A stretch of 64,000 nucleotides of DNA from Alphaproteobacteria bacterium (GTDB taxonomy: Bacteria > Pseudomonadota > Alphaproteobacteria > SMXQ01), in the NCBI GenBank assembly GCA_050485485.1, contig JBJHBM010000001.1, positions 114,916 through 178,915 of the forward strand, given 5' to 3'. How positions within the stretch are numbered: position 1 is the first letter of the stretch; every line of letters begins with the position of its first letter. Made by a program: the position numbers and the translations under genes. Under the pieces are notes generated by a model, which worked only from the letters and a program-made list of their open reading frames with translations, did not search any database and was not told the DNA's origin. Positions 6,187 through 21,527 of the stretch are shown here, piece after piece.

Positions 6187-7476
6187 ATGATGACGATTCG
6201 CTACAGTTTCGCCGCGCTGGCGGCCGGCGTCCTTGCCGCGGGCTTCCTGATGGCGCCGGCGCCGGCCGCGGCCGACCCCGTGGCCGACTTCTACAAGGGC
6301 AAGCGGATGGAGATGCTGATCGGCTACTCCTCCGGCGGCGGCTACGACACCTACGCGCGCGTGGTCGCGCGCCACTGGCCGCGCCTGATCCCCGCCCAGC
6401 CCACCATGACGCCGCGCAACGTGCCGGGCGCGGGTTCGATGCGGCTGATGAACGAGATGTACAACACCCGGCCCAAGGACGGCACCGCAGTCGCGACCGT
6501 CAGCCGCGGCATCGTCCACGAGGAGTTGTGGGGCAACCAGGGCGTCCAGTTTAGGGCCAACGAGATGCACTGGATCGGCAGCGCCAATAACGAGGTGAGC
6601 GTGTGTGCGTTCTGGAAGACCGCGCCCGCCGCCACCGTCAACGACCTGCTCAACAACGAGCTGGTGGTGGGCGGCACCGGGCCGGGCGCCGACACCGACG
6701 CCTTTCCGCAGGTGATGAACAACGTGTTCGGCAGCAAGCTCAAGCTGGTGACTGGCTACCCCGGCGGCAACGACATCAACTTCGCGATCGAGCGCGGCGA
6801 GGTCCAGGGACGTTGCGGCTGGTCGTGGTCGTCGGTGGTGGCCACGCGCGCCCAGTGGCTGAAGAACAAGGACATCCTGATCCCGATCCAGATGGCGCTG
6901 ACCAAGCACGCGGACCTGGCGGACGTGCCGCTGGTGATGGACCTCGCGCGCAACGAGCGCGAGAAGCAGCTTCTGACCCTGGTGTTCGCGCGCCAGACCA
7001 TGGGGCGTCCGTTCCTCACCACCGATCAAGTGCCGGCCGAGCGCGTCGCGATGCTGCGCAAGACCTTCATGCAGCTGATGGAGGACAAGCAGTTCCTGGC
7101 GGAAACCGAGAAGGCGCGCCTCGAGATCACCCCGGTTTCGGGTGAGGAGGTCCAGCAGCTCGTCTCCAGTCTGTTCCAGTTCCCGAAGGACGTGATCGAA
7201 GCCTCCAGGCTCGCCGCCAGCGACGCCGCACGCACCCAGGTGGTGAAGGCGGTGGTGCCGGAGGTGACGGTGACGGCGCGGGTCGCAGCCGTGCAGCGCG
7301 GCGGCGAGCGTGTCCAGTGGCAAGGCGACACCGCCAAGGGCCGCGTCAACCTCGACGGCAAGACCGAGGTGACCGTCGCCGGCAACAAGGCTACGGGCGC
7401 CGACCTGAAGGAAGGCATGACCTGCGACTTCAAGATTCTCGGCGTAGAGACGGCGCTGGCGATCGCCTGCAAGTAA
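6187..7476 (+). CDS. Bug/TctC-family solute-binding protein with an extra ~65-aa C-terminal domain ending ...GMTCDFKILGVETALAIACK
   Basis: ATG 6187 after GGGAG. Signal peptide, then ADFYKGKRMEMLIGYSSGGGYDTYARVVARHW...PGAGS. 430 aa versus ~325 aa for a canonical TctC. The C-terminal domain is homologous to the two small stand-alone proteins at 16622..17462 and to the tail of the TctC at 15031..16275. Confidence 0.8.
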   Translation: MMTIRYSFAALAAGVLAAGFLMAPAPAAADPVADFYKGKRMEMLIGYSSGGGYDTYARVVARHWPRLIPAQPTMTPRNVPGAGSMRLMNEMYNTRPKDGTAVATVSRGIVHEELWGNQGVQFRANEMHWIGSANNEVSVCAFWKTAPAATVNDLLNNELVVGGTGPGADTDAFPQVMNNVFGSKLKLVTGYPGGNDINFAIERGEVQGRCGWSWSSVVATRAQWLKNKDILIPIQMALTKHADLADVPLVMDLARNEREKQLLTLVFARQTMGRPFLTTDQVPAERVAMLRKTFMQLMEDKQFLAETEKARLEITPVSGEEVQQLVSSLFQFPKDVIEASRLAASDAARTQVVKAVVPEVTVTARVAAVQRGGERVQWQGDTAKGRVNLDGKTEVTVAGNKATGADLKEGMTCDFKILGVETALAIACK

Positions 7477-7484
7477 CCGTGTCG

Positions 7485-7521
7485 CGCGGGGCCTTTCCGC
7501 GCTCTCGCGGAAGGGCCCCGC
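7485..7521 (+). other. 16-bp-stem hairpin after the tctC-fusion gene (GCGGGGCCTTTCCGCG-CTCT-CGCGGAAGGGCCCCGC)
   Basis: Read from the sequence. It is preceded by the same CAAGTAA-CCGTGTCG junction found after ubiD. Confidence 0.5.
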
Positions 7522-7922
7522 AATCTTGCCGGGCAGGTACGGGACGGAGCGCGAACATCGCCGCGAAGTGCCAGAAAAGTAACGTTTTCATGGCTTAAAG
7601 CTGTTGCATGTTGGGCGCCTCCCTGCCAAATTTCAAAACGTCGGCGGCCTGCCCGGAGGCTGCCCGGACGATGCGCGCAGCCGCGCGTCGTGCAATCAAG
7701 ATGGCCCATCGCGCGTTTGTTCGGAATGGCGGGCGCGCGATCCGAAGAAGCTCCGGGACGGAGGGGGGCTGCCCTTGAAGCGTCGCGCCGGCTCTCGCGG
7801 GCCGGTCGGACCGGGGATTTTCCCTGGAGAAAGTTGACAATGGCTGGACGCTGGTGCGCGGCCGGCCGAGCAGGAGGATGCGCCTGCCCGGAAGGGGCAG
7901 GCCGTAACGGATAGAGGACTGT

Positions 7923-9767
7923 ATGGCAACGACCACCAAGCCCACCGGCGCCCAGAAACCATTTCGCAAGCCGATCCCGACCCCCAAGAAGCCGAAGCTG
8001 AAGACTGCCGGGGCCGGCCGTTTCAATTCCGACGTCATCGTCGACATGCTGCACATGTACGACATGCCGTACGCCTCGCTGAACCCGGGCGCGAGCTACC
8101 GCGGCCTGCACGACAGCATGGTGAACTACGGCGGCAACTGGCCGTACATGATGCTCTGCACCCACGAGGAGACTGCGGTCCAGATCGCCCACGGCTATTC
8201 CCGCGCCACCAACAAGCCGATGGTGGCGATCGTCCACAACCTGGTCGGCCTGCTGCATTCGAACATGGCGATCTACTACGCCTACATCGACCGCGCGCCG
8301 ATCTTCATCATCGGCGCCACCGGCCCGCTGAACGAGACCAAGCGGCGCCCGAAGATCGACTGGATCCACACGGCCAACGGCCAGGGCGCGGCGATCCGCG
8401 AATACGTCAAGTTCGACGCCCAGCCGGCCACCGTGGATGGCGTCCCCGAAGCCTTCGCGCGCGCCTATTCGGTGATGATGACCCAGCCCACCGGGCCGAT
8501 CTACATGTGCTACGACGCGTGGCTCCAGGAGGAGAAGCTCGAGCACAAGGTCGAGCTGCCGCCGCCGTCGGCGGTCAAGGTGCCGTCCAAGATGGCGCCC
8601 GACCCGGAAACCCTGCGCAAGGCGGCCGAGATGCTGGTCGCTGCCAAGTTTCCGATGCTGTTGGCCGAGTTCGCGGGCCGCTCCGAGGACGGCTACAACG
8701 CGCTCGTCGATCTCGCCGACACCCTGCACTGCGCGGTCTATGACCTCGACACGCGCTGCAACTTCCCCGGCACCCACCCCTACAATATGTCGATGATCGA
8801 CGACGTGCTGAAATCGGTGGACCTCGTGGTCGGCCTCGACGCCCAGGACTGGGAGCGCCCGACCACGCGTCTGATTTCCGCCACCCGCACGCGCGAAAGC
8901 AAGATGGCGAAAGGGTGCAAGTTCATCGACATCGGCTTTGGCGAACTCAAGATCTCGGGCTGGTCGCTCGACTACCAGCGCATGATGAACTTCGACTTGC
9001 GCATCCTCGGCGATACCGACATTGCGATCCCGATGCTCACCAAGATGTGCAAGGAGATCATCGCCAAGAGCTCCGGCCTTAAGTCGAAGCTCGAGGCGCG
9101 CGGCAAGAAGCTCGCCCAGATCCACGCGAAGAAGCGGGCGGAATGGCGCAAGGTGGGTCTCGACTCGAAGATGCGCAAGATGAGCCCGATCCCGCACGCG
9201 GTGCTCGCGACGGAAATCTGGGAAGTCATCAAGGAGCACGACTGGGTACTGACCGCGAGCACGCTCGAGGACTGGACCCGGCGCATCTGGGACTTCGATG
9301 CCCACCACCGTCACCCGGGCAAGTCGATGGGCACCTCGACCCAGATCGGCACCTCGCTCGGCGTGGCCCTCGCCAACCGCGACAAGGGGCGGCTCGTGGT
9401 GGACATCCAGCCCGACGGCGACCTCATGTTCGACGCCGGCGCGCTGTGGATCGCGGCCAAGCACAACATTCCGATGCTGATCGTGATGTACAACAACCGC
9501 GCCTACTACAACGACTGGGAACACCAGATCCGCATGGCGCGGCTGCGCAAGACCGACGAAAAGAGGGCGCATATCGGTATGGACCTGTGCGATCCGGACC
9601 CGGACTTCGCCGGCCTCGCCCGCGCGATGGGCTGGTACGCCGAGGGTCCGATCGACCGCTGCGAGGACATCCAGCCGGCGTTGCGCCGCGCGATCGAGCG
9701 GGTGCGTGCCGGCCAGCCGGCGCTCGTGGACACGATCACCCAGCGTCGCGACGCGTGGAACCAGTAG
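7923..9767 (+). CDS. Thiamine-diphosphate-dependent enzyme (acetolactate-synthase / benzoylformate-decarboxylase-like) with a Lys/Pro-rich N-terminal extension
   Basis: 614 aa. PYR domain HEETAVQIAHGYSRATNKPMVAIVHNLVGLLHSNMAIYYAYIDRAPIFIIGATGP. TPP-binding GDG...N motif (DIQPDGDLMFDAGALWIAAKHNIPMLIVMYNN). RBS AGAGGA 7 nt upstream. The 915-aa ORF on the opposite strand (7026..9773) is judged spurious. Confidence 0.85.
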   Translation: MATTTKPTGAQKPFRKPIPTPKKPKLKTAGAGRFNSDVIVDMLHMYDMPYASLNPGASYRGLHDSMVNYGGNWPYMMLCTHEETAVQIAHGYSRATNKPMVAIVHNLVGLLHSNMAIYYAYIDRAPIFIIGATGPLNETKRRPKIDWIHTANGQGAAIREYVKFDAQPATVDGVPEAFARAYSVMMTQPTGPIYMCYDAWLQEEKLEHKVELPPPSAVKVPSKMAPDPETLRKAAEMLVAAKFPMLLAEFAGRSEDGYNALVDLADTLHCAVYDLDTRCNFPGTHPYNMSMIDDVLKSVDLVVGLDAQDWERPTTRLISATRTRESKMAKGCKFIDIGFGELKISGWSLDYQRMMNFDLRILGDTDIAIPMLTKMCKEIIAKSSGLKSKLEARGKKLAQIHAKKRAEWRKVGLDSKMRKMSPIPHAVLATEIWEVIKEHDWVLTASTLEDWTRRIWDFDAHHRHPGKSMGTSTQIGTSLGVALANRDKGRLVVDIQPDGDLMFDAGALWIAAKHNIPMLIVMYNNRAYYNDWEHQIRMARLRKTDEKRAHIGMDLCDPDPDFAGLARAMGWYAEGPIDRCEDIQPALRRAIERVRAGQPALVDTITQRRDAWNQ

Positions 9768-9814
9768 CGGCATAGCGGTACGTCGGACGGCAAGGCCCGC
9801 GGAGCATTGGCCAT

Positions 9815-10402
9815 ATGCGTAGATTGGTCGTAGGCATGTCGGGTGCGTCGGGTGCCATTTACGGCATCCGCTTCCTCGAGGTTCTCAGCAAGGCCGAGGA
9901 CATCGAGGTGCACCTGATCCTGTCGGCTTCCGCGGGCCAGACCATCGTGGACGAAACCGACTGGACGGTGTCGGACGTCAAAGCGCTCGCCGACGTGGTC
10001 TACAACAACCGGGACATCGGGGCGTCGCTGTCGAGCGGCTCCTATCGCCACGACGGGATGATCGTGGCTCCGTGCTCGGTCAAGACCCTGTCCGGGATCG
10101 TCAATTCCTACGACGACAACCTGCTGACACGCGCGGCCGACGTGTCGCTCAAGGAGAAGCGGCGCGTCGTGCTGCTGGTGCGGGAGACGCCCCTGCACCT
10201 CGGCCATATCGAACTCATGGGACGGGCGGCGAGCTACGGTGCCGTCGTCATGCCGCCCGTTCCGGCCTTCTATCATCGTCCTCAGACGTTGGACGACGTG
10301 ATTAACCAGACAGTGGGCAAGGCACTGGATCTTTTCGACATTCCCCACCGGCTGTTCCGGAGGTGGAAGGAGTCGAACAACGGGGGAGGGACGACCGGCT
10401 GA
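9815..10402 (+). CDS. ubiX: Flavin prenyltransferase UbiX/Pad1 (makes prFMN for UbiD)
   Basis: MRRLVVGMSGASGAIYGIRFLEVL... 195 aa, a typical UbiX N-terminus and length. Confidence 0.9.
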   Translation: MRRLVVGMSGASGAIYGIRFLEVLSKAEDIEVHLILSASAGQTIVDETDWTVSDVKALADVVYNNRDIGASLSSGSYRHDGMIVAPCSVKTLSGIVNSYDDNLLTRAADVSLKEKRRVVLLVRETPLHLGHIELMGRAASYGAVVMPPVPAFYHRPQTLDDVINQTVGKALDLFDIPHRLFRRWKESNNGGGTTG

Positions 10403-10489
10403 GCCGCGGGCTCGGCTTTTAACCGGCATCGATCTGCACAACAACGGCGGGCGATGCATCACTCACCACTCGCAAACAGGTGGGGTGAC

Positions 10490-12649
10490 ATGGATTATCT
10501 GATGCTGATGGCGACGAGCGCCGGCGATGCCCTTGCAATCATCGGTGAGCCCTCGCGCCTCTTCTTCCTGTTCAGCGGTGTCGTCATCGGCCTCGTGCTG
10601 GGCGTCATCCCCGGTCTCGGCGGTCTCGTCGGCCTCGCGCTCCTGCTTCCCTTCACATTCGACATGGACAGATATGCGGCCTTCGCGTTCCTTCTCGGAA
10701 TGGGGGCCGTCACGACGACGTCGGATACCATACCGGCAGTGCTGTTCGGCGTGCCCGGCACGACGGGATCGGCCGCGACCATCCTCGACGGTCACCCCCT
10801 GGCGCGCCAAGGCCATGCTGGGCGCGCTTTCGGCGCGGCCTATTCGGCCTCCCTGCTGGGCGGCCTCCTGGGCGCGCTCCTGCTCGCGGTGTCGATCCCG
10901 ATCCTGCGGCCGGTGATGCTCTATCTCGGCTCGCCGGAGCTGCTGTCGTTCTCGGTGTTCGGACTGTCGATGGTGGCGGTGCTGTCGGGTTCCTCGCCGA
11001 TGCGCGGCATCGGCGCGGCCTGCCTCGGCCTCCTGATCGCCATGGTCGGCTCAGACCCGCAGACCGGCACCCTGCGCTGGACGCTGGATTCCCTCTACCT
11101 GTGGGACGGTCTGCCGCTGGTGCCCGTCACCATCGGCCTGTTCGCGCTGCCGGAGCTCGCGGACATGGCGATCAACCGGACCTCGATCGCGCGCGACGCG
11201 AAGAGCGTGAAGTTCGACACCCGTACCGGCCAGTGGCAGGGGGTGCGCGACACGCTCAACAACTGGTGGCTGGTAGTGCGCGTCGCCTGGCTCGGTGCCT
11301 CGCTCGGCGCGATCCCGGGCCTCGGCTCCTCGATCGTGGACTGGGTCTCCTACGGTCACGCGGCCCGGACCGAGCCGCGCGCGGAGGAAACCTTCGGCAA
11401 GGGCGACATTCGCGGCGTGATCGCGCCCGAATCGTGCAACAACGCCAAGGAAGGCGGATCCCTGGTGCCGACCATCGCCTTCGGCGTGCCGGGCTCGGCC
11501 TCTATGGCGATCCTGCTCGGCGCGTTCCTGATCCACGGCCTGGTTCCGGGCCCGGACATGCTGACCAAGCACCTCGACGTCACCTATTCGATGGTGTGGT
11601 CGATCGCCATCGCCAACGTGCTCGGCGCCGGCATCTGTTTCATGTTCTCGGACCAGTTCGCGAAGCTCGCGCTGCTGCGCTACTCGATCATCATGCCGCT
11701 GGTCCTGTGCGTGGTGTTCGTGGGCGCGTACCAGGGCTCGCGGCAATGGGGCGATATCTACGCCCTGCTGGTGTTCGGTACCGTCGGCTGGGTGATGAAG
11801 CGCCTGCGCTGGCCGCGTCCGCCGGTAATCCTCGGTGTCGTGCTGGGCGGAATCGTGGAACGCTACATGTTCATCTCTGTGGAGCGTTACGGCACCGAGT
11901 GGATTTTCCCGACGAGCCTGGAGAGCGTCCGCTGGGTCGTACTGATCATGTTCGCGCTCTCGATCTACGGCCTTCTGCGCCCGCTGATCAAGGAGTACAA
12001 ATACGCCGGCGGCGTCGGCGGGATGCTCCGAAGCATGGAGCCGTCGAAGCCCCACTTCGACGCTCAGACGCTGATGTACCTCTTCTTCATCGGCGTGTTC
12101 GGCTACATGATGTACGAGGCGTCCGGCTGGAACTACGACGCCAGGATCATCCCAAACATCGTGGGCTATTTCGGCCTCACCATCCTGGCGATCAGCCTGC
12201 TCAACCATACCTTCAAGAGCGTCGAGATCACCGCCGCCCAGAGGGCCGAGCAGGCGGACGAGAGCGCCATGGGCCGGCTCAAGCGCAGCATGCATCTCGA
12301 CATCTCGGTGATGGGGCCGCAGATGCCGAAGAGGCTGCTCGCGCTCAGGGCGATCGGCTATCTCGGGTGGCTGTTCTCATTCCTGCTGTCCACGGCGCTG
12401 ATCGGCATGATTCCGTCGCTGTTCCTGCTGGTGGTCGCCTACATGAAGATCGAAGGGCGGGAATCGTGGAAGCTGACGCTGTCCTGCGCGTTCGGCCTCA
12501 TGTTGTTTTCGATCGTCCTGTTCGACAAGCTCCTGGCCCTGCCGTGGCCGCAGACGGAGTTCGGCGATCTCTACCTGATGTTCGATCAGGCGGTGCTGCA
12601 ACCCCTGACCTACTGGGTCGAGGTGCAGATGGGCTGGCGGGATCCTTGA
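10490..12649 (+). CDS. Fused TctA-TctB tripartite tricarboxylate transporter membrane protein (TctA large permease domain followed by a C-terminal TctB-like 4-TM domain)
   Basis: ATG 10490 after AGGTGGGGTG. The first ~500 aa align with the stand-alone TctA at 18389..19897 (GVPGTTGSAATILDGHPLA, ETFGKGDIRGVIAPES, GGSLVPTIAFGVPGS). The last ~200 aa align with the stand-alone TctB-like protein at 17758..18399, including RESWKL. Confidence 0.85.
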   Translation: MDYLMLMATSAGDALAIIGEPSRLFFLFSGVVIGLVLGVIPGLGGLVGLALLLPFTFDMDRYAAFAFLLGMGAVTTTSDTIPAVLFGVPGTTGSAATILDGHPLARQGHAGRAFGAAYSASLLGGLLGALLLAVSIPILRPVMLYLGSPELLSFSVFGLSMVAVLSGSSPMRGIGAACLGLLIAMVGSDPQTGTLRWTLDSLYLWDGLPLVPVTIGLFALPELADMAINRTSIARDAKSVKFDTRTGQWQGVRDTLNNWWLVVRVAWLGASLGAIPGLGSSIVDWVSYGHAARTEPRAEETFGKGDIRGVIAPESCNNAKEGGSLVPTIAFGVPGSASMAILLGAFLIHGLVPGPDMLTKHLDVTYSMVWSIAIANVLGAGICFMFSDQFAKLALLRYSIIMPLVLCVVFVGAYQGSRQWGDIYALLVFGTVGWVMKRLRWPRPPVILGVVLGGIVERYMFISVERYGTEWIFPTSLESVRWVVLIMFALSIYGLLRPLIKEYKYAGGVGGMLRSMEPSKPHFDAQTLMYLFFIGVFGYMMYEASGWNYDARIIPNIVGYFGLTILAISLLNHTFKSVEITAAQRAEQADESAMGRLKRSMHLDISVMGPQMPKRLLALRAIGYLGWLFSFLLSTALIGMIPSLFLLVVAYMKIEGRESWKLTLSCAFGLMLFSIVLFDKLLALPWPQTEFGDLYLMFDQAVLQPLTYWVEVQMGWRDP

Positions 12650-12737: not shown

Positions 12738-13808
12738 TCAGGGATGCTCGATCTGGGTGAACCACTCGGTCGGCAGTTCGCGACCGAGGCCGGCCTCGCG
12801 CGCCTTGCGGTAGGCAAGGCCGCCGACCACGGTGAATTGATAGCCGATGCCGGAATAGTTGAGGAAGCAGGTGGCCTCGCGGTCGTTCGTCCGGCCGGCC
12901 ACCCGGCCGGTGACGAGGTCGGCAAGCTCGGCCATGGATTTCTCGTCCAGGCACGCGTCGGGGGCATGGACGCCCTTGCGATCCTCGGCGAGCTCGACTC
13001 CCTGGGTGCGCACCACGAGGGGCGCGTTGTCGCGCAGATGCACGGCGCGGCGCGCGCAGGCCGCGACCGCCTCGGGCGCGATCTCGGCCGGCTTGATGGA
13101 CGAATAATGCACGCCCTCCCGCACATGGTTGTGGCCGATCACGGGATCGAGGGCATTGGTGGCGCAGGCGACGATATCGGCGTCGCGGACCACCGCTTCG
13201 ACGCTCGCCGCCGCGGCGACCTCGATCCCGAGCCGTGCCGTCATGTCGCGGGCGAAGGCGGCGCGATGGGCGGGGTTGGGGCTGTAGCACACCAGCCTTT
13301 CGAGCGGCCGTACGGCGGCCATCGCCATTGCCTGCGCGCCGGCCTGCCAGCCCGAGCCGATCACCGCCGCCACCCGGGCGTCGGCGCGCGCCATGTGGCG
13401 GGCCGCGATGCCGTTGGTGGCGCCGACCCGCATCCGCTGGACCACGCCGTCCGGGAAGATCGCGAGCGGCTCGCCGTTCTCCGTGGAGAACAGCAGCACG
13501 AGCCCGACGTAGCGTCCGCCGGGCGCGGCCGGCACCTTCTCGCGCCGGGTCGAGCCCGCGACCTCGCGCCAGCCGATGATGTCGGAATTGAGCCGGATGG
13601 AGGCGAATCCCGACGGCGCATGGACGCCGTCCATGCTCTTGAGGGCGTAGACGGTGCCCGGATCGCGGGCGGGGGCGACGATCTCGGCCCGGCCCCGATT
13701 GCCCCCGCGTCCTTCGGCGAGATCGCGGTAGCCCTCCTCGAGAACGGCGATACACTCCGGCATGGCGAGCACGCGGTCGAGCTCGTCGTTGCTGAATATC
13801 CAGGTCAT
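12738..13808 (-). CDS. Ornithine cyclodeaminase / mu-crystallin family protein (paralog 2)
   Basis: 356 aa. MTWIFSNDELDRVLAMPECIAVLEEGY... with a Rossmann-type VIGSGWQAGAQ motif. About 50% identical to the upstream paralog. Confidence 0.85.
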   Translation of the reverse strand: MTWIFSNDELDRVLAMPECIAVLEEGYRDLAEGRGGNRGRAEIVAPARDPGTVYALKSMDGVHAPSGFASIRLNSDIIGWREVAGSTRREKVPAAPGGRYVGLVLLFSTENGEPLAIFPDGVVQRMRVGATNGIAARHMARADARVAAVIGSGWQAGAQAMAMAAVRPLERLVCYSPNPAHRAAFARDMTARLGIEVAAAASVEAVVRDADIVACATNALDPVIGHNHVREGVHYSSIKPAEIAPEAVAACARRAVHLRDNAPLVVRTQGVELAEDRKGVHAPDACLDEKSMAELADLVTGRVAGRTNDREATCFLNYSGIGYQFTVVGGLAYRKAREAGLGRELPTEWFTQIEHP

Positions 13809-13832
13809 GGAAGTTCCCGCCTGTAGGGACGC

Positions 13833-14909
13833 CTACGGATGCACCGTCTCGGTGAACCAGTCGGTGGGCAAGGCGTGGCCGATGCCGCGTTCGACCGCGC
13901 GCTTGTAGATGACCGAGCCAGCCGCCGCGAACTGGTAGCCGAGGCCGAGGTTGTTCAGGAAGCAGGTGACCTCGTCCTGGCCGCCGCGGCCTTGGGCGCG
14001 GCCGACGATCAGGTCGGGCAGGGTGGGAAATTTCCCGAAATCGAGCTTGTTGGCGGCATTCCAGCCCTTTTCCTTGCTCTCCTCCTGGAACGGCGCACCC
14101 TCGGCCACCACGATGATGGGCGCGGTATCATGGGTGTGCACCGCCACCCGGTTGGCGGCGAGGATCGCGGCCGGCTCGACCTCCGGCTTCTTGATGGAGG
14201 AGACGTGCATTCCCGGTGCGATCCACTCCTTGAAGAATACCGGGTCGATGGAATTGGTACCGCACATGGCGACGTCGGCGCCGCGCACCGCTTCTTCGGG
14301 ATGGGCGACCGGACGGATGTCGACGCCGACCACCTCGCTCATGCGGACGGCGAAAGCCTCGCGGTTGTCCTTGTTGGGGGAGAATACCCGGATTTCCTCG
14401 AAGTCGCGCACTGCGCAGGCCGCGGTGAGCTGCGTCTCCGCCTGCCAGCCCGAGCCGAGCAGCCCGAGCACGCGCGAATCCTCGCGCGCCATGTACTTGA
14501 CGCCGAGCCCGTTGGTGGCGCCAACGCGGATATGCTGCAGCACGCCGTCCGGGAAGATCGCGAGCGGCTCGCCGTTGGCGGTCGAGAACAGCAGCACCAG
14601 CCCGACGTAGCGGTCGCCGGGCGCCGCCGGCACCTTCACGCGGCGCTGGGCGTTGCCGATCACCGGGTTGGTAACGATGTCGGAGTTGATGCGGATCGCG
14701 CCGACGCCGAGCGCCGGCACCACCCCGTCCATCGACTTGAGACCGTAGATCGCATCGGGCGCATAGGAGGTGGGGGCGATGCAGTCGGAGCGCTGGCGCG
14801 TGATGCCGCGCCCGTGGGCCAACTCCTTGTAGGCCTCCTCCAGCGCTGCGATGCAGTCCGGCATGGTGAGCAGGGTTTCGACGTCGTCGTTGGACAGGAT
14901 CAGGGTCAT
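13833..14909 (-). CDS. Ornithine cyclodeaminase / mu-crystallin family protein (paralog 1)
   Basis: 358 aa. MTLILSNDDVETLLTMPDCIAALEEAY... RBS GGAGG. Lies 24 nt upstream of paralog 2. Confidence 0.85.
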   Translation of the reverse strand: MTLILSNDDVETLLTMPDCIAALEEAYKELAHGRGITRQRSDCIAPTSYAPDAIYGLKSMDGVVPALGVGAIRINSDIVTNPVIGNAQRRVKVPAAPGDRYVGLVLLFSTANGEPLAIFPDGVLQHIRVGATNGLGVKYMAREDSRVLGLLGSGWQAETQLTAACAVRDFEEIRVFSPNKDNREAFAVRMSEVVGVDIRPVAHPEEAVRGADVAMCGTNSIDPVFFKEWIAPGMHVSSIKKPEVEPAAILAANRVAVHTHDTAPIIVVAEGAPFQEESKEKGWNAANKLDFGKFPTLPDLIVGRAQGRGGQDEVTCFLNNLGLGYQFAAAGSVIYKRAVERGIGHALPTDWFTETVHP

Positions 14910-14963: not shown

Positions 14964-15003
14964 AAGGAAAAGGGCGGAGCCGTCCCGCGTCGGCCCCGCC
15001 CTT
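14964..15003 (-). terminator. Rho-independent terminator (minus strand) after the tctC-fusion gene
   Basis: Minus-strand sense reads AAGGGCGGGGCCGACGCGGGACGGCTCCGCCCTT followed by TTTCCTT. Confidence 0.6.
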
Positions 15004-15030: not shown

Positions 15031-16275
15031 TTACTTGCAATCGATGGTGACGGGCTCGTTGTCGCCGCCCGGCTTGTAGTCGATCTCGCACGCCATGCCC
15101 GCCTTGAGGGCCTCCCGGGCTCCGGGCTTGCCGCCGATGGTGATCTTGGTGCGCGCGGCCGAGATCTTGGACTTGACGTCGTTGGCGCCGTGCTTGAAGG
15201 CGATCTCCCGCCCGTCCGGCGACACGGCGGACAGGGCGGTGGCCACCTTGCTGGCGGGCGGCACGATATTCAGGATATCCGCGACCATGGCGACGATTTC
15301 CGGCGGCTGGTCAAGGGCCTCGCGCACTTTGCGCGCGAGCTCTTCGCCGTAGAGCGGGTCGACCGGCCGGTCGGCCTTGATCGCCTGGGCCTGCAGCTCG
15401 GAGTCTTCCATCGCCTTGCGATAGGCCTCGACGAGGGTTTTGGCGCGGTCGGCCGGAATGCCCGGAGGGCCGGCCGTGAAGCGTGCGATCTCTGCCTGGG
15501 AGCCGACCAGCGCGACCACCGCCTTGGCGTTGCGCTCGGTCACGATCTCGGAAAGCAGCGGTACGCCCGGGGCCGCCTTGCCGCCGATCTGGGCGATGTA
15601 GCGGCCGTAGCCGTTCTTCACGAACAGCTCGGCCGAGGACTGGGAGCCGACGGAGGCGTCGATCTCGCCCCGGCGCATGGCCAGCTCCGCGTCGGTGCCG
15701 TCGTAGCCAAGGATCAGCTTCATGTTCCAGCCGAGCACCTTGGACAGCATCATGGTGTCGTTGTAGGCTGAAGAGCCGACGCCCGCCGAGGCAAAGCGGA
15801 CGGGCGCCCTGGCCGTCCTGAGGTCGTCGAGGGTCTTGAGGTCGGTCTGCGCCGCGGCCATGATGACGCGCGGGTCGCTCGCGGCCTTGCCGATCCAGGT
15901 CATCTTGGCGAGGTCGAAGCGCACGCCCTGGCGCCCCAGAAGCTGGGAGAAGATCAGCCCGGTGTTGAAGGTGCCGATGGTCTCGCCGTCGGGCTTCGCG
16001 GCATAGAGCAGGTTGGCGCCGATGATATGGCCGGCACCCGGCACGTTGCGCACGACGAAGGTCGAGCCGGGCAGGTGGTTCTGCATGTATCTGGCCACCA
16101 GGCGGCCGTAGAAGTCGTAGCCGCCGCCCGCCGCCGTTGCCACCACGTAGGTGACGTTCTTGCCCTTGTAGTAGTCGGCACCGTCGGCCGCTGCGGCCGC
16201 GCCCGCGAGCAGGGTAGCCCCGGCGGCGACCGCCGCGCCCAGGCGGAGGCTTCTCGTAAGTTTCGGTGTCATGGG
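15031..16275 (-). CDS. Bug/TctC-family solute-binding protein with the C-terminal small domain (...ALKAGMACEIDYKPGGDNEPVTIDCK)
   Basis: ATG 16275 after AAAGGA. Signal peptide MTPKLTRSLRLGAAVAAGATLLAGAAAA. ADYYKGKNVTYVVATAAGGGYDFYGRLVARYM...PGAGH. 415 aa. Confidence 0.8.
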   Translation of the reverse strand, partial: PMTPKLTRSLRLGAAVAAGATLLAGAAAAADGADYYKGKNVTYVVATAAGGGYDFYGRLVARYMQNHLPGSTFVVRNVPGAGHIIGANLLYAAKPDGETIGTFNTGLIFSQLLGRQGVRFDLAKMTWIGKAASDPRVIMAAAQTDLKTLDDLRTARAPVRFASAGVGSSAYNDTMMLSKVLGWNMKLILGYDGTDAELAMRRGEIDASVGSQSSAELFVKNGYGRYIAQIGGKAAPGVPLLSEIVTERNAKAVVALVGSQAEIARFTAGPPGIPADRAKTLVEAYRKAMEDSELQAQAIKADRPVDPLYGEELARKVREALDQPPEIVAMVADILNIVPPASKVATALSAVSPDGREIAFKHGANDVKSKISAARTKITIGGKPGAREALKAGMACEIDYKPGGDNEPVTIDCK

Positions 16276-16569
16276 ACATGTCCTTTCAAGAGAGGACCGG
16301 ATTCCGTCGGGCCCGGATGGCGCAGGAGCGAAGCGGTGGCTTCTGGGCCGCACCATAGGCTACGCAAACTCGGTACGAGACGTGGCCGGCGGGTAGCAGG
16401 AAAGCATGCGAAGCGATGAGACGGTCCTCGGGGCTTCGCGCCTCCCGATCACAGTCGCCTTCGCCGTAGATGTTGGTAGGCGCAGGCAAAAAGGCAAGAA
16501 CCACCCCCGGGATGGTGATGCTTCGGCTGCGGCACGCCCCGGGGACGGATTCGAAACGTCTCGCGGGTA

Positions 16570-16601
16570 CGAAAAGGGGCGGGCCCGCAAGAGCCCGCCC
16601 C
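16570..16601 (-). terminator. Rho-independent terminator (minus strand) after small secreted protein 1
   Basis: Minus-strand sense reads GGGGCGGGCTCTTGCGGGCCCGCCCC followed by TTTTC. Confidence 0.65.
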
Positions 16602-16621
16602 CCAACGACGGCTATGCCGCG

Positions 16622-16879
16622 TTACTTGCAGGAGACCGTGGTGGCCTTGCCGCCATCGCCCTGCACGTCGCAGGTCATGCCGTCCTGAAGCTGGTCGCGC
16701 TTGGCGGCCTGGCCCTTGATGGTGACCTGGGTGCCGGAGTTGGAGATGGCGAACTCCTGGCCGCCGACGCTGATCTGGCGGCCTTCGTTCATGACCTGAA
16801 TCTTGCCCGACGCGGCATGGGCGCTCGCGATCAGGCCGACGGCGAACACGGACGTGAGAAGAGCACTGGTGATCTTCAT
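16622..16879 (-). CDS. Small secreted protein 1 (85 aa precursor) carrying the stand-alone GMxC...CK-COOH domain
   Basis: ATG 16879 after AAAGGA. Signal peptide MKITSALLTSVFAVGLIASAHA. Mature ~63 aa: ...TQVTIKGQAAKRDQLQDGMTCDVQGDGGKATTVSCK. Confidence 0.7.
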   Translation of the reverse strand: MKITSALLTSVFAVGLIASAHAASGKIQVMNEGRQISVGGQEFAISNSGTQVTIKGQAAKRDQLQDGMTCDVQGDGGKATTVSCK

Positions 16880-17036
16880 TTGATAATCCTTTCGAGACCC
16901 CACTCCCGACGGTGGACGACCTCCCGTGATGGGAAGGGGTGAGATCGTTTCATTTGTGAAGGTGCCGGGCCCTTGCGGGCGAGGCCTCCCGCCGGTACGC
17001 ATCTCCTTCTGATTTGTGCGTGCCCGGTCGTGAAGG

Positions 17037-17065
17037 ATATTGCGCCACTTTTTCGTTATTCGCAA
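17037..17065 (-). promoter_or_regulatory. Sigma70-like promoter for small protein 1 (TTGCGA-N17-CAATAT, minus-strand sense), giving a ~150-nt leader
   Basis: Read from the sequence. The same architecture, with the downstream leader sequence conserved, is found upstream of small protein 2. Confidence 0.55.
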
Positions 17066-17154
17066 GTAGCTCGAGTCATAGAACAATTATGTAAAACAGT
17101 AAGTTAAGATTATTACTTCAAGCGATTTGTCATAATATGTCTGGCGCCTATCGC

Positions 17155-17187
17155 AGAAAAAAAGAGGCGGGCCGTAAGGCCCGCCTC
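17155..17187 (-). terminator. Rho-independent terminator (minus strand) after small secreted protein 2
   Basis: Minus-strand sense reads GAGGCGGGCCTTACGGCCCGCCTC followed by TTTTTTTCT. Confidence 0.75.
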
Positions 17188-17207
17188 TCCACATCGGAAA
17201 TCCGATG

Positions 17208-17462
17208 TTACTTGCAGGCGATCGCGCTGGCCTCGCCCTCGCCGGTGATCTGGCAGTCCATGCCGGACTTCAGGTCGCCGCGGCCGGCGGGATTGCCGCC
17301 GATGGTGATCTGGGTACGCGATGCGGACACGGTGTAGGTCTTGCCGCCCGCTACAACCTCGCGGCCTTCATTCTTGACCTCGATCTTGGCCGCCATGGCG
17401 CCGCTCGACACCAGCATGGCCGCGGCGAAAACCGAAGATACAAGAGCAGTGGAAATCTTCAT
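17208..17462 (-). CDS. Small secreted protein 2 (84 aa precursor), paralog of small protein 1
   Basis: ATG 17462 after AAAGGA. Signal peptide MKISTALVSSVFAAAMLVSSGAMA. ...RTQITIGGNPAGRGDLKSGMDCQITGEGEASAIACK. Confidence 0.7.
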   Translation of the reverse strand: MKISTALVSSVFAAAMLVSSGAMAAKIEVKNEGREVVAGGKTYTVSASRTQITIGGNPAGRGDLKSGMDCQITGEGEASAIACK

Positions 17463-17594
17463 TTTGGTCGTCCTTTTGAAGCCCCTGCCCAGGGCAGGGG
17501 GACAGTTTTGGAGCATGTAGGCTCAGGCCTTTGCGAGGCTCGGCCTCCCCCCGGGCGTTTGCCGTTTTTGATTATCGGGCGCCCGGTCGGTGAG

Positions 17595-17623
17595 ATATTG
17601 CGCCTTCTCCAAGCCCTCCGCAA
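17595..17623 (-). promoter_or_regulatory. Sigma70-like promoter for small protein 2 (TTGCGG-N17-CAATAT, minus-strand sense)
   Basis: Read from the sequence. It is paralogous to the promoter at 17037..17065, and the first ~35 nt of the leader are conserved (CACGACCGGGC...AATCA). Confidence 0.55.
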
Positions 17624-17757
17624 GCGGGATTATGGGAATGCCGAAAGCCTTAACATACCGTTTTACAGGGACTTTTTTGGACGCCCCTGGGAACTTATGG
17701 GAAGGTGCCGGCCCGGCCAGCGCCTCTCTCGGACATCGCCGGCCCGGCCGGCCTGTT

Positions 17758-18399
17758 TCAATCCGGCCGCAGCCAGGTATCGACCACATAGGTGGTCACG
17801 AACCCCTCGAACAGGATCTGCTGCAGCAGGACGGAGATGATGCCGTACATCACGACCCATGACCCGGCGGTGAGGATCGCCGCGAGCTTCCAGCTCTCGC
17901 GCGCATAGTAGCGCAGGAACGCGAGCATGAAGATCGGGTAGCCGAGCCAGAAGCCGAACAGCAGCACGAGCCCGATCAGGGAGAAGAAGTAGCCGAACAG
18001 CAGCGCCTCGCGCTTGTTGCGGCTGCGCGCGGTCGTGCTCGGGTCCTCCACCAGGGTCTGGAGCTGCGTGCCTTCGGCGACGTCCATGCGGACCTTGCCT
18101 CCGGTGCGCTCCATGATCTCGGCCATGTAGCGCTCGAAGCTGGTGCGCGGGTCGATCTTGCCGCCCTGCTTGTGGTAGTTGTGCACGTCGAGCACGAGCT
18201 GGAGCAGGGTGAGTCCCATGCCCGGTATGCCGATCACGTAGGGCAGGAAGTTGGCGGGCCAGGAATAGCCGTGGGCGATCAGCACCATGCCCGCGAAGAT
18301 GGCGAACATGAGCATGGTAAAGAGCGTGCGTCCGTGAAGCAGGGCCTGCAGCACGGTGGGCTTACGCTCCGCGCCGTCGGTGCGGGGATCAGATGACAT
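17758..18399 (-). CDS. TctB-like small 4-TM subunit of the tripartite tricarboxylate transporter, encoded downstream of tctA
   Basis: ATG 18399 after AAGGAG, overlapping the tctA stop (ATGTCATCTGA). Hydrophobic 4-TM protein. Homologous to the C-terminal domain of the fused TctAB (RESWKL...). Confidence 0.7.
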   Translation of the reverse strand: MSSDPRTDGAERKPTVLQALLHGRTLFTMLMFAIFAGMVLIAHGYSWPANFLPYVIGIPGMGLTLLQLVLDVHNYHKQGGKIDPRTSFERYMAEIMERTGGKVRMDVAEGTQLQTLVEDPSTTARSRNKREALLFGYFFSLIGLVLLFGFWLGYPIFMLAFLRYYARESWKLAAILTAGSWVVMYGIISVLLQQILFEGFVTTYVVDTWLRPD

Positions 18400-19897
18400 G
18401 GCCGAGCTCCTTCTGGCTGTCCCTGTAGCCGCGGAAGATTGCATAGGCGATGGTGACCGAGATTAGCCCCATCAGGACGAGCGAAAGCGGGCGGGCGAAG
18501 AAGTCCCAGCCCCACAGCGCCCAGGCCTTGTGGAGCGAATCCTCGGCGATCGAGCCGAGCACGATGCCGATGGCGAAGGGCGGGCGCGGCCAGTCGTACT
18601 TGAGAAGGCCGTAGCCGATCACGCTCAGGATCGCGAGCAGGACCAGGTTCTCCCACTGGCCCTTGGCCAGCAGCACGCCGAACACCACCACCACCAGCAC
18701 GAACGGGATCATGATGCCGCCGCGCAGGAAGGTGAGGAACGCCACCCAGCGGGTGATGAACAGCAGGATGATGACGGCGATGATGTTGGAGATCACCAGC
18801 GCCCAGATCAGGATCCACACGAGGTCGAGCTGCTGGGTCAGCATCATCGGTCCGGGCTGGATGCCGAGGATCAGGAACGCGCCGAGCAGGATCGCCATGC
18901 CGGAGGAGCCGGGCACGCCGAAGAACAGGGTGGGGAGCAGCGAGCCGCCCTCCTTGGAGTTGGTGGCCGATTCCGGCGCGATTACGCCGCGCACGTCGCC
19001 CTTGCCGAAGGTCTCCGGGTTGCGGCAGCTTTGGACCGCGTGGCCGTAGCAGATCCACGCCGCCGCCGAGCCGCCGAGGCCCGGCAGGATGCCGATGAAC
19101 GCCCCGATCATGGAGCACCGGAACATCAGCCACATGTGGCGGAAGGTCTCCATCATGCCCTTCCACTGGGCCCGCACGCCGGTATCGGCCATGTCGCGGG
19201 AGATTGCCGAGATCGCGCCGCCCTTGACCCCGAGGTGGATCATCTCCGGCACCGCGAACAGCGCGAGGACCGCGGTGATCAGGTCGACGCCGTCCCACAG
19301 GAACAGGAAATCTCCCGAGTAGCGCGCGATGCCGGTCTGTGGGTCCATGCCGACGAATGCCAGCATCATGCCGTAGAGGCCCACCACGATGCCCTTGAAG
19401 ATGGCAGAGCCCGACACGAAGGCGACGAAGGTGATGCCGAGCAGGGCGAGGAAGAAGAATTCGGCGGGCGAGAACTTGAGCACGATCGGCTCAATCACGG
19501 GGATCAGCACCGCCAGCACCGCGGCGCCGAGGATGCCCCCTATGCCTGAGGCCATCAGGCTCGCGCCGAGCGCCATGCCTGCCTGGCCCTTCTGCGCCAG
19601 CGGGTAGCCGTCGACGATGGTGGCGGCGTCGTCGCCGGTGCCCGGCACCCCGAACATGATCGACGATATCTGCCCCGCCGTCCCGGTGACGGCGTGCATG
19701 GACAGCAGGAACACCGCGCCCGCGATCATTTCCTGTCCGAACACAAACGGGATCATTATCGCGATCGCAAGTCTTCCGCCGAGTCCGGGCACGGCCCCGA
19801 AGAAGATGCCGATACAGGTGCCGAAGATCATCATCCACAGCACGTACGGCGATGTCATCAAATGCACGAGCGTGCCAAAGATCACATCTATGGACAT
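18389..19897 (-). CDS. TctA large permease subunit of the tripartite tricarboxylate transporter
   Basis: 502 aa with GVPGTGDDAATIVDGYPLAQKGQAG, ETFGKGDVRGVIAPES and GGSLLPTLFFGVPGSSGMAILLGAF. The family's internal duplicated structure is present. Confidence 0.9.
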   Translation of the reverse strand: MSIDVIFGTLVHLMTSPYVLWMMIFGTCIGIFFGAVPGLGGRLAIAIMIPFVFGQEMIAGAVFLLSMHAVTGTAGQISSIMFGVPGTGDDAATIVDGYPLAQKGQAGMALGASLMASGIGGILGAAVLAVLIPVIEPIVLKFSPAEFFFLALLGITFVAFVSGSAIFKGIVVGLYGMMLAFVGMDPQTGIARYSGDFLFLWDGVDLITAVLALFAVPEMIHLGVKGGAISAISRDMADTGVRAQWKGMMETFRHMWLMFRCSMIGAFIGILPGLGGSAAAWICYGHAVQSCRNPETFGKGDVRGVIAPESATNSKEGGSLLPTLFFGVPGSSGMAILLGAFLILGIQPGPMMLTQQLDLVWILIWALVISNIIAVIILLFITRWVAFLTFLRGGIMIPFVLVVVVFGVLLAKGQWENLVLLAILSVIGYGLLKYDWPRPPFAIGIVLGSIAEDSLHKAWALWGWDFFARPLSLVLMGLISVTIAYAIFRGYRDSQKELGHVI

Positions 19898-20028: not shown

Positions 20029-20592
20029 TCAGGCCTTAACGTTCTCGAACCCCTGGGCGTTTTCCAGCTGTTCGAACCAGTCGAAGCCCATTTTCTTGAT
20101 GATGCGGCTGTTGATGACGACGACCCGCGCTTCGTTCTTCGGATCGGCGTTGACGCGCTGATGGATGACGTAGGGTGGGACATAGACGAAGTCGCCTTCC
20201 TTCCACTCGAACTTCTTGGGCTCCTTCTCCCAGTCCCACTCGAATTCGTCCTTGCAGTCGAAGATCACGTCCCAGTGGAGATCGTAGCCGCGGCCTTCGA
20301 CCACGTACATGATCTCCTCGGTCAGGTGGCGACTCTTGCCGGTGGACTTGCCGGGCTCGATGAACTGCATGTAGGCGTCGATGCACATCTCCGCCGTGCC
20401 CATCTTCTCGTGGATGATGTGCTTGATGAGGCCGTCGGGCGAGCGCTCCATCGGCATCTCGTGGGCCTTCACCACTTTCTTGGCCTTGGTCTTGTACTGC
20501 TGGCGGAAGGCCGCCGATTCCTTGAGGTTCTCGAGGTAGAACGAGCAGTTCTTGTCGCTGCGCGCCTTGGCTTTTTCGTCTGCGAACGCCAT
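20029..20592 (-). CDS. Cupin-domain protein (Trp/Lys-rich), possibly the C-terminal half of a split bicupin dioxygenase
   Basis: 187 aa. The cupin core is GKSRHLTEEIMYVVEGRGYDLHWD...WKEGDFVYVPPYVIHQRVN. RBS GGGAGAG. Confidence 0.65.
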   Translation of the reverse strand: MAFADEKAKARSDKNCSFYLENLKESAAFRQQYKTKAKKVVKAHEMPMERSPDGLIKHIIHEKMGTAEMCIDAYMQFIEPGKSTGKSRHLTEEIMYVVEGRGYDLHWDVIFDCKDEFEWDWEKEPKKFEWKEGDFVYVPPYVIHQRVNADPKNEARVVVINSRIIKKMGFDWFEQLENAQGFENVKA

Positions 20593-20654
20593 CTGACTGG
20601 TCTCTCCCTTGCTTCGGCCGCGGGCGGCCGAGTCCTTAGTCTTTCCCGATGCGG

Positions 20655-21257
20655 TTACAGGTTGGTGGGCGGGGTCCAGCTCTCCTGGCCCGGCGCGGGG
20701 GTCTTCGGCGGATACTCCACCATCTTCTGGAACAGCATGTGCATGAACAGGAACAGCGGCTTCGCCTTCATGATGAGCACCGCCGCGAATTCCTTGGGAT
20801 CGTCATTGAAATGCTGGTGGACGCAGCCGTTCTCGACGATGCAGGCGTCGCCCGCGCTCCAGGGATAGCTGATGCCGTCATGGACGTCGTGCCCGTTGCC
20901 CTTGAGGACGAAGAACACGGCGGAGTTCATGTGGCCGTGCTTCTGGCCGTGGCCGCCGGGGGAATAGCAGTCCAGGTGGCATTCGATCGACTGGGCGATC
21001 TCGACCGCCTGCGGGTTGACGATCTTCTTGCCGTAGTTCTGGGGGCCGCCCTTCCATTTCCAGTCGCCGTGCGAGTAGATGCGGGGCTGGGCGTAGAGGC
21101 TCTTGTAGACCTCGCCGTAGGTGCCCTCGAGCGCGCGCACGAAGGTGCGCTTCTTCTGCCAGCGCTCCCACACCACTTCCTTGCCTTCGTTGTGGCCGGG
21201 CTCGCCCGGTTTCACGTAGGTATCGGTCTCTTTCTGGCTGATTGTCTCGTCAGGCAC
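20655..21257 (-). CDS. Cupin-domain protein with His-rich metal site, possibly the N-terminal half of a split bicupin dioxygenase
   Basis: GTG start at 21257 after GGAG. The 81 codons upstream within the long ORF use rare ATA/TCA/AGA codons and are judged non-coding. GGHGQKHGHMNSAVFFVLKGNGHDVHDGISYPWSAGDACIVENGCVHQHFN. Confidence 0.6.
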   Translation of the reverse strand: MPDETISQKETDTYVKPGEPGHNEGKEVVWERWQKKRTFVRALEGTYGEVYKSLYAQPRIYSHGDWKWKGGPQNYGKKIVNPQAVEIAQSIECHLDCYSPGGHGQKHGHMNSAVFFVLKGNGHDVHDGISYPWSAGDACIVENGCVHQHFNDDPKEFAAVLIMKAKPLFLFMHMLFQKMVEYPPKTPAPGQESWTPPTNL

Positions 21258-21527
21258 GTCGCGTACTCCATGGAATGGCCACAAAGCATAATATCGTATG
21301 CCATGCGGGGATGTCGAACCGGGCGGGGCGAGGCTTGGCGATCTTGATATTATGCGCGGCCGCCGGACGGAAAGCCGACTCATAGCCCATTCCGTCGGTG
21401 CCCGCCATAGGGATTGAGCGCGGCGTGCGGCGCGATCGGCCGCGCTTTGCAAGGGCTTCGGCATCGGTTATGAGCCTTTCCGACCCGGTGTCCCGCACGG
21501 GGTGCCGCCTGCCGACCCGGAGAACCG

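Follow-up and report, generated by a model that had tools for sequence, protein, structure and literature searches.

The question raised by this locus is what two small paralogous genes, each encoding a secreted protein of little more than 60 residues after processing, are doing inside a transporter operon. The locus lies in a 64-kb stretch of alphaproteobacterial DNA, referred to at its full length as the window, and the operon is a tripartite tricarboxylate transporter (TTT) system by all three of its defining subunits, TctA, TctB and the solute-binding protein (SBP) TctC. The two genes, designated A and B, are placed between TctB and the TctC-like gene, downstream of TctA. Their mature products consist of a domain that ends in Cys-Lys, called here the CK domain. 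Because the same domain was found fused to the end of the adjacent TctC-like protein (TctC::CK) and of a second SBP in the window, A and B are regarded as free copies of an SBP tail domain and not as novel stand-alone proteins. The features concerned are as follows.

17208..17462, minus strand: gene A, a short-form CK protein (database id P0001); 84-aa precursor with the signal peptide at 1-24 and the CK domain at 25-84, ending ..ACK; CK hidden Markov model (HMM) E=4.8e-35
16622..16879, minus strand: gene B, a short-form CK protein (database id P0002); 85-aa precursor with the signal peptide at 1-22, ending ..SCK; CK HMM E=9e-35
15031..16272, minus strand: tctC::CK, the TTT SBP; 413 aa from the recorded start (P0218), the longest open reading frame (ORF) extending to 16356 and encoding 441 aa; Pfam TctC E=1.9e-13, 51 bits against a cut-off of 27
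15034..15237, minus strand: CK domain fused to the TctC C-terminus, residues 374-441 of the 441-aa ORF; HMM E=1.4e-30
17758..18444, minus strand: tctB, the small membrane subunit; Pfam TctB 31.1 bits, just over the cut-off of 29.1
18389..19897, minus strand: tctA, the large membrane subunit; Pfam TctA E=4.4e-116, profile positions 1-421 of 423
6187..7476, plus strand: a second, divergent TctC-like SBP with a diverged C-terminal CK domain (about 7282..7473); CK HMM E=1.6e-07

The first-pass annotation of this DNA had described two paralogous minus-strand ORFs between tctB and the tctC-like gene, each with a signal peptide and a domain of about 60 residues ending in Cys-Lys, and this description held, the signal peptides having been assigned by eye. 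The gene A protein consists of the signal peptide MKISTALVSSVFAAAMLVSSGAMA followed by the mature part AKIEVKNEGREVVAGGKTYTVSASRTQITIGGNPAGRGDLKSGMDCQITGEGEASAIACK, and the gene B protein of the signal peptide MKITSALLTSVFAVGLIASAHA followed by ASGKIQVMNEGRQISVGGQEFAISNSGTQVTIKGQAAKRDQLQDGMTCDVQGDGGKATTVSCK. The proteins are 45% identical and their mature parts are 60-63 residues long. An AAGGA ribosome-binding site precedes both genes, the start of B being the ATG that follows this Shine-Dalgarno sequence, and a spacer of 265 bp separates B from tctC. The signal peptides are of the n-h-c type with an AXA motif (..GAMA/AKIEV in A and ..SAHA/ASGKI in B), a feature also kept in the orthologues of A and B, and the two products are probably Sec-exported proteins located in the periplasm.

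The TctC-like protein of the window ends in ..SAVSPDGREIAFKHGANDVKSKISAARTKITIGGKPGAREALKAGMACEIDYKPGGDNEPVTIDCK, which shares 44-47% identity with the A and B domains. When the whole window was searched in six frames with a profile of the three copies, exactly one further copy was found, at the end of the SBP at 6187..7476, where much of the CK motif has been lost. In total, the window contains four CK copies, two free and two as SBP tails. The earlier description of A and B as stand-alone proteins was therefore right in that the genes are free, and wrong in that the domain is also part of the neighboring TctC and of the second TctC-like SBP. The finding is less exotic than first thought, since the proteins copy the tail of their neighbor and the domain is widespread in metagenomes, and the link to the transporter is better founded because of the fusion, the synteny and the selection described below.

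An exhaustive HMMER search with the three-copy profile retrieved 327 cluster representatives at E<=1e-3 and 49 at E<=1e-10; a word-indexed homologue search from gene A alone returned only the self match. Among the best 150 of the 327, about two thirds were proteins of 70-140 aa with the domain at the very end, about two dozen were TctC-like proteins of 410-520 aa with the domain at the extreme C-terminus, two were ABC-type SBPs (P0069 and P0148) and about a dozen were long secreted multi-repeat proteins without the terminal Cys; 58 of the 150 ended in CK. An alignment of 36 members gave the consensus GKvxxVxxxGRxvxxxG..vSGSRTKvTIxGKxAxRxxLKxGMxCxv..EAxxIxCK, in agreement with the one first proposed. 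T26, G43, C46 and C59 are invariant in this alignment, G9, S22, G32 and R37 are near-invariant, as are the GR and S.SRT motifs, and the domain stops one residue after the second Cys. It had been claimed that two invariant Cys lie about 17 residues apart; the invariance was borne out, and the spacing proved to be 13 residues in A, 14 in B and 17 in the fused TctC copy.

The domain had also been placed outside all named families, and profile searches of Pfam, NCBIfam and the PDB sequences likewise gave no assignment. No Pfam or NCBIfam family reached its cut-off for A or B, the best, for gene B only, being DUF6799, TIG (E=0.043) and DUF5666 (E=0.086), and the PDB sequences yielded no meaningful match for the CK domain. 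The database members shown carry no Pfam domain and the few that are named are called 'hypothetical protein'. No description of the CK domain or of a TTT accessory protein was found in the literature. On these comparisons, neither the CK tail nor the free proteins can be assigned to a named family.

All 120 of the best homologues of the window TctC carry a CK domain at the extreme C-terminus, six of them with three tandem copies and one with two. The distribution of the domain was also followed with a degenerate DNA pattern, which gave two true matches on the window, where none was expected, and was run on one genome per species. The pattern finds only copies of the SRT type that end in TGC-AAG, so that its counts are lower bounds and are biased. 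Among the matches listed there were more than 118 stretches, nearly all of them from metagenome-assembled genomes (MAGs) of unclassified Alphaproteobacteria and a few labelled Hyphomicrobiaceae, Rhodospirillales/Rhodospirillaceae, Rhizobium, Burkholderiales or Litorivicinus; single MAGs carry at least 7-19 copies. In the same set of listed matches, 132 domains end long ORFs, 112 of which have a TctC-like N-terminal part and 20 another. The four of these 20 that were tested, together with P0069 and P0148, are ABC-type binding proteins of the SBP_bac_1/6/8 families, so the CK domain, judged by these matches, is not specific to TTT systems. The architectures observed are one to three tandem copies ending TctC/Bug proteins, the tail of some ABC-type SBPs and free secreted proteins. 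The CK-tailed ABC-type SBPs (SBP_bac_1/6/8) tend to form two adjacent paralogous genes, as at loci L012, L070, L115 and L124 and probably L122 (L numbers denote loci in other genomes), in MAGs that are rich in TctC::CK.

A and B are real genes and not chance ORFs, because their orthologues hold the same operon slot elsewhere and because the pN/pS of close orthologue pairs of free CK genes is 0.04-0.26, the mark of purifying selection. The close pairs were used since the dN/dS of the window genes against their own orthologues (0.37-0.90) was uninformative through saturation. Orthologues of the A type were found at L030, L068, L050, L014, L107 and L002, and those of the B type at L030, L068, L085 and L111. 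In the alignments, the free CK genes change faster than the transporter genes around them. When the window was compared with related MAGs by blastn, the matches ended at about 16191 and restarted at about 17770, and the region of the small genes (16200..17770) was the sole non-aligning part of an otherwise conserved cluster.

The first-pass annotation had suggested a survey of TTT operons in other genomes, and homologues syntenic with TTT genes were found in many of them; the contrary case that it named, of homologues never syntenic with TTT genes elsewhere, does not hold. Free CK genes lie between tctB and tctC, or beside tctC, at nine loci, with L004/L005 counted as one. The full order TctB-A-B-C-TctC::CK is seen in L030 and L068, and subsets of it in L085, L050, L111 and the window. 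Two free genes adjoin TctC::CK in L085 and L050, and one free gene is present in L105, L095, L111, L004/L005 and L091. The free proteins fall into short-form A-, B- and C-type orthologue groups and a separate long-form type, which occurs in L105 and L004. The C-type, which is absent from the window, has four Cys owing to an extra ..NVC.KG(I/V)CDQ.. pair and is encoded directly beside tctC::CK (L030 1538..1945, L068 7020..7421, L085 6914..7318 and L050 7275..7703).

The long-form copies give the most direct connection between free and fused domains. The operon of L128 has the order cupin-cupin-TctC::CK-CK-CK-TctA-TctB without a free CK gene, and those of L105 and L004 have the order cupin-cupin-TctC::CK-freeCK-TctA-TctB. 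In L105 the free copy shares 71% identity with the fused domain of its neighbor and 56-65% with the three L128 copies. Fusion and fission in orthologous genes is a classical sign of parts acting together, and its occurrence between these operons argues that the SBP and the free protein work together.

The structure of the domain was predicted with AlphaFold2. The mature gene A domain, modeled from a 70-sequence alignment, had a pLDDT of 90.4 with seven short strands and no real helix, and the CK domain is predicted to be an all-beta, OB-like small barrel. In this model C46 is on strand E45-51 and C59 on strand E53-59, the adjacent strands of the last hairpin. An independent model of full-length TctC::CK (pLDDT 88.5, pTM 0.76) placed C395 on E394-399 and C412 on E407-412. 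As both Cys sit on adjacent strands of the last hairpin in the two models, the simplest reading is that the C46-C59 pair probably forms a cross-strand disulfide in the exported protein, as the first-pass annotation had proposed. A natural variant that lacks the putative disulfide is encoded at L004 7902..8309 (P0168); this free CK protein is of the long form and keeps the last Cys, but has Phe at the position of the first invariant one (GMSFDITY). The linker between the SBP core and the CK domain in the full-length model is short and has a pLDDT of 81-95, suggesting that the domain would hold a defined position on the SBP and would not hang from a floppy tether. A Foldseek search with the CK domain gave nothing under E=0.1 and only generic OB-like matches; PilY2 (3tdq) was among the top fold matches, and the best structural neighbor, a weak one, was an S-layer self-assembly domain.

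Each gene had been said to possess its own promoter and its own strong terminator. The terminators were found, as 13-bp hairpins followed by U tracts, and the promoters stand as predictions.

17161..17190, minus strand: terminator-like hairpin after gene A; 13-bp G+C-rich stem, U7 tract; -34.4 kcal/mol, z=-7.8
16572..16603, minus strand: terminator-like hairpin after gene B; 13-bp G+C-rich stem, U4 tract; -36 kcal/mol, z=-3.6; missed by the consensus scan because it has only 4 U
14970..15003, minus strand: terminator-like hairpin after tctC::CK; 13-bp G+C-rich stem, U tract; -35.1 kcal/mol, z=-2.4
17595..17623, minus strand: predicted promoter-like TTGCGG-N17-CAATAT upstream of gene A, followed by a leader of about 125 nt
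17037..17065, minus strand: predicted promoter-like TTGCGA-N17-CAATAT upstream of gene B, followed by a leader of about 150 nt that is partly alignable with the gene A leader

In L068 and L030, too, the small genes are followed by hairpins of this kind. The motif TTGCG-N18-CAATAT has two matches in the window, upstream of A and of B, where none is expected by chance, and it occurs twice upstream of the B-type gene in L111. The first-pass annotation had proposed high and separately tuned expression of A and B, which is plausible from these sequence motifs. An Rfam scan of the two long leaders and the intergenic regions gave sub-threshold noise only and thus no known riboswitch in the leaders. 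Beyond the promoter-like motif, the leaders of A and B (16880..17207 and 17463..17760, minus strand) share the block GGCGCAATATC..ACGACCGGGC..AATCA..CCGG.GGGAGGCC..GCC, which suggests that the tandem duplication took in the long 5' untranslated region; the duplicated region may be regulatory.

Taken as a mechanism, A and B would be exported and probably abundant proteins made only of the CK barrel of about 60 residues, with a probable disulfide staple in the last hairpin. They would most likely work with the SBP, as trans-acting copies of the TctC tail. The barrel would serve as a protein-protein adaptor, and the free proteins would either bind TctC through its CK domain or compete with that domain for a partner, so setting the oligomeric or docking state of the periplasmic SBP and modulating the delivery of substrate to TctAB. 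That the free copies associate or compete with the CK domain of the SBP in this way is the reading we prefer, and it is held tentatively. It is the fusion/fission pattern that suggests a physical association of A and B with TctC, and through it A and B may have an effect on transport. A more extended version, in which the free CK proteins are additional periplasmic TTT subunits that join TctC::CK in a multi-CK complex required for capturing substrate or for docking, and in which the barrel serves secondary (TTT) and primary (ABC) importers alike as an undescribed accessory module of their SBPs, across a large alphaproteobacterial lineage that is uncultured, is conceivable and is considered doubtful. 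Behind the adaptor, in order of decreasing probability, come the binding of a small ligand, anchoring to the envelope, a metal site and gene remnants.

Several observations weigh against the adaptor, 1) the direct link by fusion and fission covers only the long-form copies of L105 and L004, while the window A and B are short-form and about 31-47% identical to the fused forms, so that their own connection to the SBP would be drawn from family membership and conserved adjacency, 2) a number of free copies are not located with TTT genes (L002, L006, L014, L107, L121, L131 and L134), the L002 copy adjoining a sensor kinase and a cupin/amidohydrolase cluster and those of L006, L014, L107 and L121 having no TTT gene nearby, 3) the number of CK copies per operon ranges from 2 to 4, with no fixed stoichiometry, 4) among the matches listed, 69 of the 86 loci with only fused SBP::CK genes show no TctA in the stretch that was fetched, as is usual for orphan Bug proteins, and 5) the conserved polar motif (GR, S.SRT, R, K) would be no less suited to a small anionic ligand than to a protein partner.

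The last of these points leads to the strongest alternative, by analogy with known ligand-binding domains, in which the CK barrel would bind or buffer a small ligand, such as an oxyanion, a carboxylate or a counter-ion common to the substrates, and the free proteins would act as a periplasmic sink. Apart from Gly and Cys, the positions that hardly vary are occupied by Ser, Thr, Arg and Lys (G9-R10, S22, S24-R25-T26, R37 and K41), and in the model these would lie in or beside the loops of the barrel. The occurrence of the domain free, in tandem and fused to a transport protein recalls the Mop/TOBE molbindins, and the promoter-like motifs and terminators of the individual genes would fit a high-copy binding protein. 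However, no TOBE or Mop Pfam match was obtained at E<=1 in the 36 members, and the second TctC-like copy of the window lacks much of the motif. Moreover, the identical motif is present on TTT and ABC SBPs of presumably different substrates, so the ligand would have to be common to them. Such a role is considered unlikely, although it comes ahead of the other alternatives.

Less probable still is that the CK domain anchors the SBPs to the envelope, by way of anionic lipid head groups, peptidoglycan, periplasmic glucans or the outer membrane, with tandem copies adding avidity and free copies competing or capping. The number of tandem copies does vary from 1 to 3, unrelated classes of SBPs carry the domain, the related multi-repeat secreted DUF5666 proteins look structural, and the weak structural likeness to an S-layer self-assembly domain would fit, as would the location of distant free relatives beside MdoG/MdoH-type glucan genes and DUF2541. 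The charge can be read in two ways. Most members are strongly basic (median net charge +8 to +10, pI about 10), which might hint at a polyanionic partner, but the SBP cores of the same proteins are also basic (median +7), so that the charge may be a trait of the lineage, and all four CK copies of the window are close to neutral (+1 to +2); the charge was given less weight for these reasons. No match was obtained to families known to bind peptidoglycan or lipids.

The first-pass annotation had noted a likeness between the Met-x-Cys pair and GMTCxxC metal sites, and the conserved G-M-x-C, together with the second invariant Cys at the C-terminus, could in principle belong to a periplasmic Cu/Ag-type metal chaperone or site. 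The multi-repeat relative P0004 scores on the CusF_Ec Pfam model, and the TTT SBP BctC is reported in a 2026 preprint to bind citrate chelated with Zn or Ni. The likeness did not survive comparison, as the barrel is predicted to be all-beta and OB-like and contains no CxxC, and as the probability was 1.2% when the family profile was compared with E. coli CusF by hhalign. No CK member has a CusF_Ec or HMA Pfam match, the cross-strand Cys of an exported protein would favor a structural disulfide, and the free L004 copy has Phe in place of the first Cys. A metal site is thus very improbable. The notion that the small ORFs are decaying, functionless remnants of duplicated tctC 3' ends, to which their position beside tctC::CK, the shared C-terminal domain and the greater divergence of their DNA relative to the flanks might point, is largely refuted by the intact start, Shine-Dalgarno sequence, signal peptide and stop of each gene, the constant order of distinct A and B orthologue groups in several genomes, the low pN/pS, the conserved flanking terminators and their membership in a separate short-form subfamily that did not arise as recent copies of the neighbor's domain.

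With the adaptor as the preferred reading, the remaining genes around the operon can be described. The order in the window is cupinL-cupinS-TctA-TctB-A-B-TctC::CK-OCD-OCD, where OCD denotes ornithine-cyclodeaminase/mu-crystallin genes.

20655..21464 (cupinL) and 20029..20592 (cupinS), minus strand: two cupin genes at the head of the cluster; Pfam Cupin_2
12738..14909, minus strand: two OCD genes downstream of tctC::CK; Pfam OCD_Mu_crystall

The same order was found again in several alphaproteobacterial MAGs at about 77-80% DNA identity. The OCD paralogues (12738..14909) and the cupins (20029..21464) thus lie on either side of the TTT genes and are retained together with them in other MAGs, the cupins accompanying TTT and CK genes in L105, L095, L068, L111, L004 and L128, and the OCD genes being conserved in L085, L050, L091 and L004. 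Their NCBIfam scores were all far under the cut-offs, the cupins being weakly 5-aminosalicylate dioxygenase-like and the OCDs EutC/ketimine-reductase-like. In L030 (3285..8000) and L068 (1388..5892) two successive TctA-TctB pairs lie upstream of a set of three free CK genes and a single TctC::CK, so that one SBP gene is accompanied by two membrane units.

A second TTT-related cluster occupies 6187..12649 on the plus strand of the window and contains the TctC-like SBP with the CK tail at 6187..7476, whose N-terminal part matches TctC-like proteins at other loci and obtains no score from Pfam TctC. It also contains a thiamine pyrophosphate-dependent enzyme (7923..9767), a UbiX-family flavin prenyltransferase (9815..10402; NCBIfam 270 bits) and a 731-aa TctA with a C-terminal extension of about 270 aa (10454..12649). 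The L004 orthologue of this TctA has Pfam matches to both TctA and TctB, and the 731-aa protein looks like a TctA-TctB fusion; TctAB fusions were called 'rare' in a 2018 review (PMC5812351). Distant Cys-less relatives of 93 aa occur in Binatia and Eisenbacteria MAGs, with variable neighbors and no consistent OCD or TTT context. At L008, L132 and L133 these relatives lie in a conserved block beside a DUF2541 protein and MdoG/glycosyltransferase (periplasmic glucan-type) genes; upstream of them are an OCD-family gene and then YjgF in L008, and YjgF and then a 356-aa gene without a Pfam match on record in L132 and L133.

TTT systems are among the least understood of the SBP-dependent uptake systems. 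Hundreds of TctC/Bug proteins and some ABC SBPs end in an unnamed domain that TTT operons also encode as free secreted proteins. This suggests that part of SBP biology is hidden by annotation, since the members of the family are currently labelled 'TctC' or 'hypothetical'. A model of the CK domain would expose about 90 extra residues on many annotated TctC proteins. The pattern of fusion and fission also supplies a concrete hypothesis, that the free proteins bind the SBP tail and affect uptake. What appears to be new here is a binding-protein system, of the TTT and also the ABC class, whose undescribed accessory domain occurs both in cis and in trans.

The core of the TctC::CK model was compared with known structures by Foldseek and matched TphC (7ndr), the Ideonella TBP (8hk9), Bug27 (2qpq), BugD (2f5x), MatC (6hke) and Rpa4515 (5oei). 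The superposition on these structures covered about 310 columns with a target-normalised TM of about 0.8, and for TphC, Bug27 and BugD the E values were 1e-17 to 1e-20. The solved TTT SBPs that were matched have 288-302 residues and cover about 306-318 alignment columns of the 413-residue query, and this length and coverage imply that none of them carries a C-terminal beta-barrel. In contrast, the window TctC and all of its 120 best homologues carry one to three CK domains, and A and B are that tail alone.

The closest named family is DUF5666 (PF18914), which resembles the CK domain in size, in its all-beta pattern and in the motif '..T.vtv.G..a...dLk.G..v.v..'. The CK profile retrieves secreted multi-repeat proteins that are called DUF5666 by Pfam, and 3 of the 36 CK members match DUF5666 weakly (best E=2.6e-4); against the cut-off of 27 bits, gene A gave no match and gene B 13.6 bits. 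The CK domain is set apart from DUF5666 by its pair of invariant Cys, by the GR and S.SRT motifs, by its strict placement at the C-terminus and by its association with SBPs. It is plausible that the CK domain is a distant, probably disulfide-bearing relative of DUF5666, the kinship being at the level of the superfamily. The name DUF5666 was absent from the titles and abstracts of the papers found to mention it. More remote neighbors of the CK domain are CusF_Ec-like proteins and PilY2.

Two further candidates were considered and rejected. The ligand motif of CusF-type chaperones (PF11604) consists of His and Met-x-Met and was not seen in the CK alignment, and neither the hhalign comparison nor the Pfam search noted above supported them. 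In the case of the HMA/GMTCxxC domain, which has no Pfam match in the family, the predicted fold is all-beta and not ferredoxin-like, and the Cys are 13-17 residues apart and not in a CxxC.

As to accessory proteins, the first-pass annotation had stated that no small periplasmic subunit has been described for TTT systems, which agrees with the 2018 review, where the class has only TctA, TctB and TctC and no periplasmic accessory subunit (PMC5812351). The sole described case of an extra periplasmic protein partnering an SBP among the SBP-dependent secondary transporters is TatT of the TPAT systems, which partners a TRAP SBP (PMC5812351). TatT is a TPR protein, belongs to a TRAP and not a TTT system, is unrelated to the CK domain in sequence and fold, and is not a copy of an SBP domain.

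In architecture, the nearest parallel is found in the Mop/TOBE molbindins, whose OB-type domain of about 65-70 aa occurs free, in tandem or fused to transporter components. The TOBE/Mop domains are cytoplasmic, belong to molybdate/sulfate transport systems and are fused to ABC ATPases or ModE, whereas the CK domain is exported and fused to SBPs, and with no sequence match in the 36 members the likeness is architectural only. The Mop/TOBE proteins nevertheless provide a precedent for a small domain that acts both in cis and in trans around a transporter.

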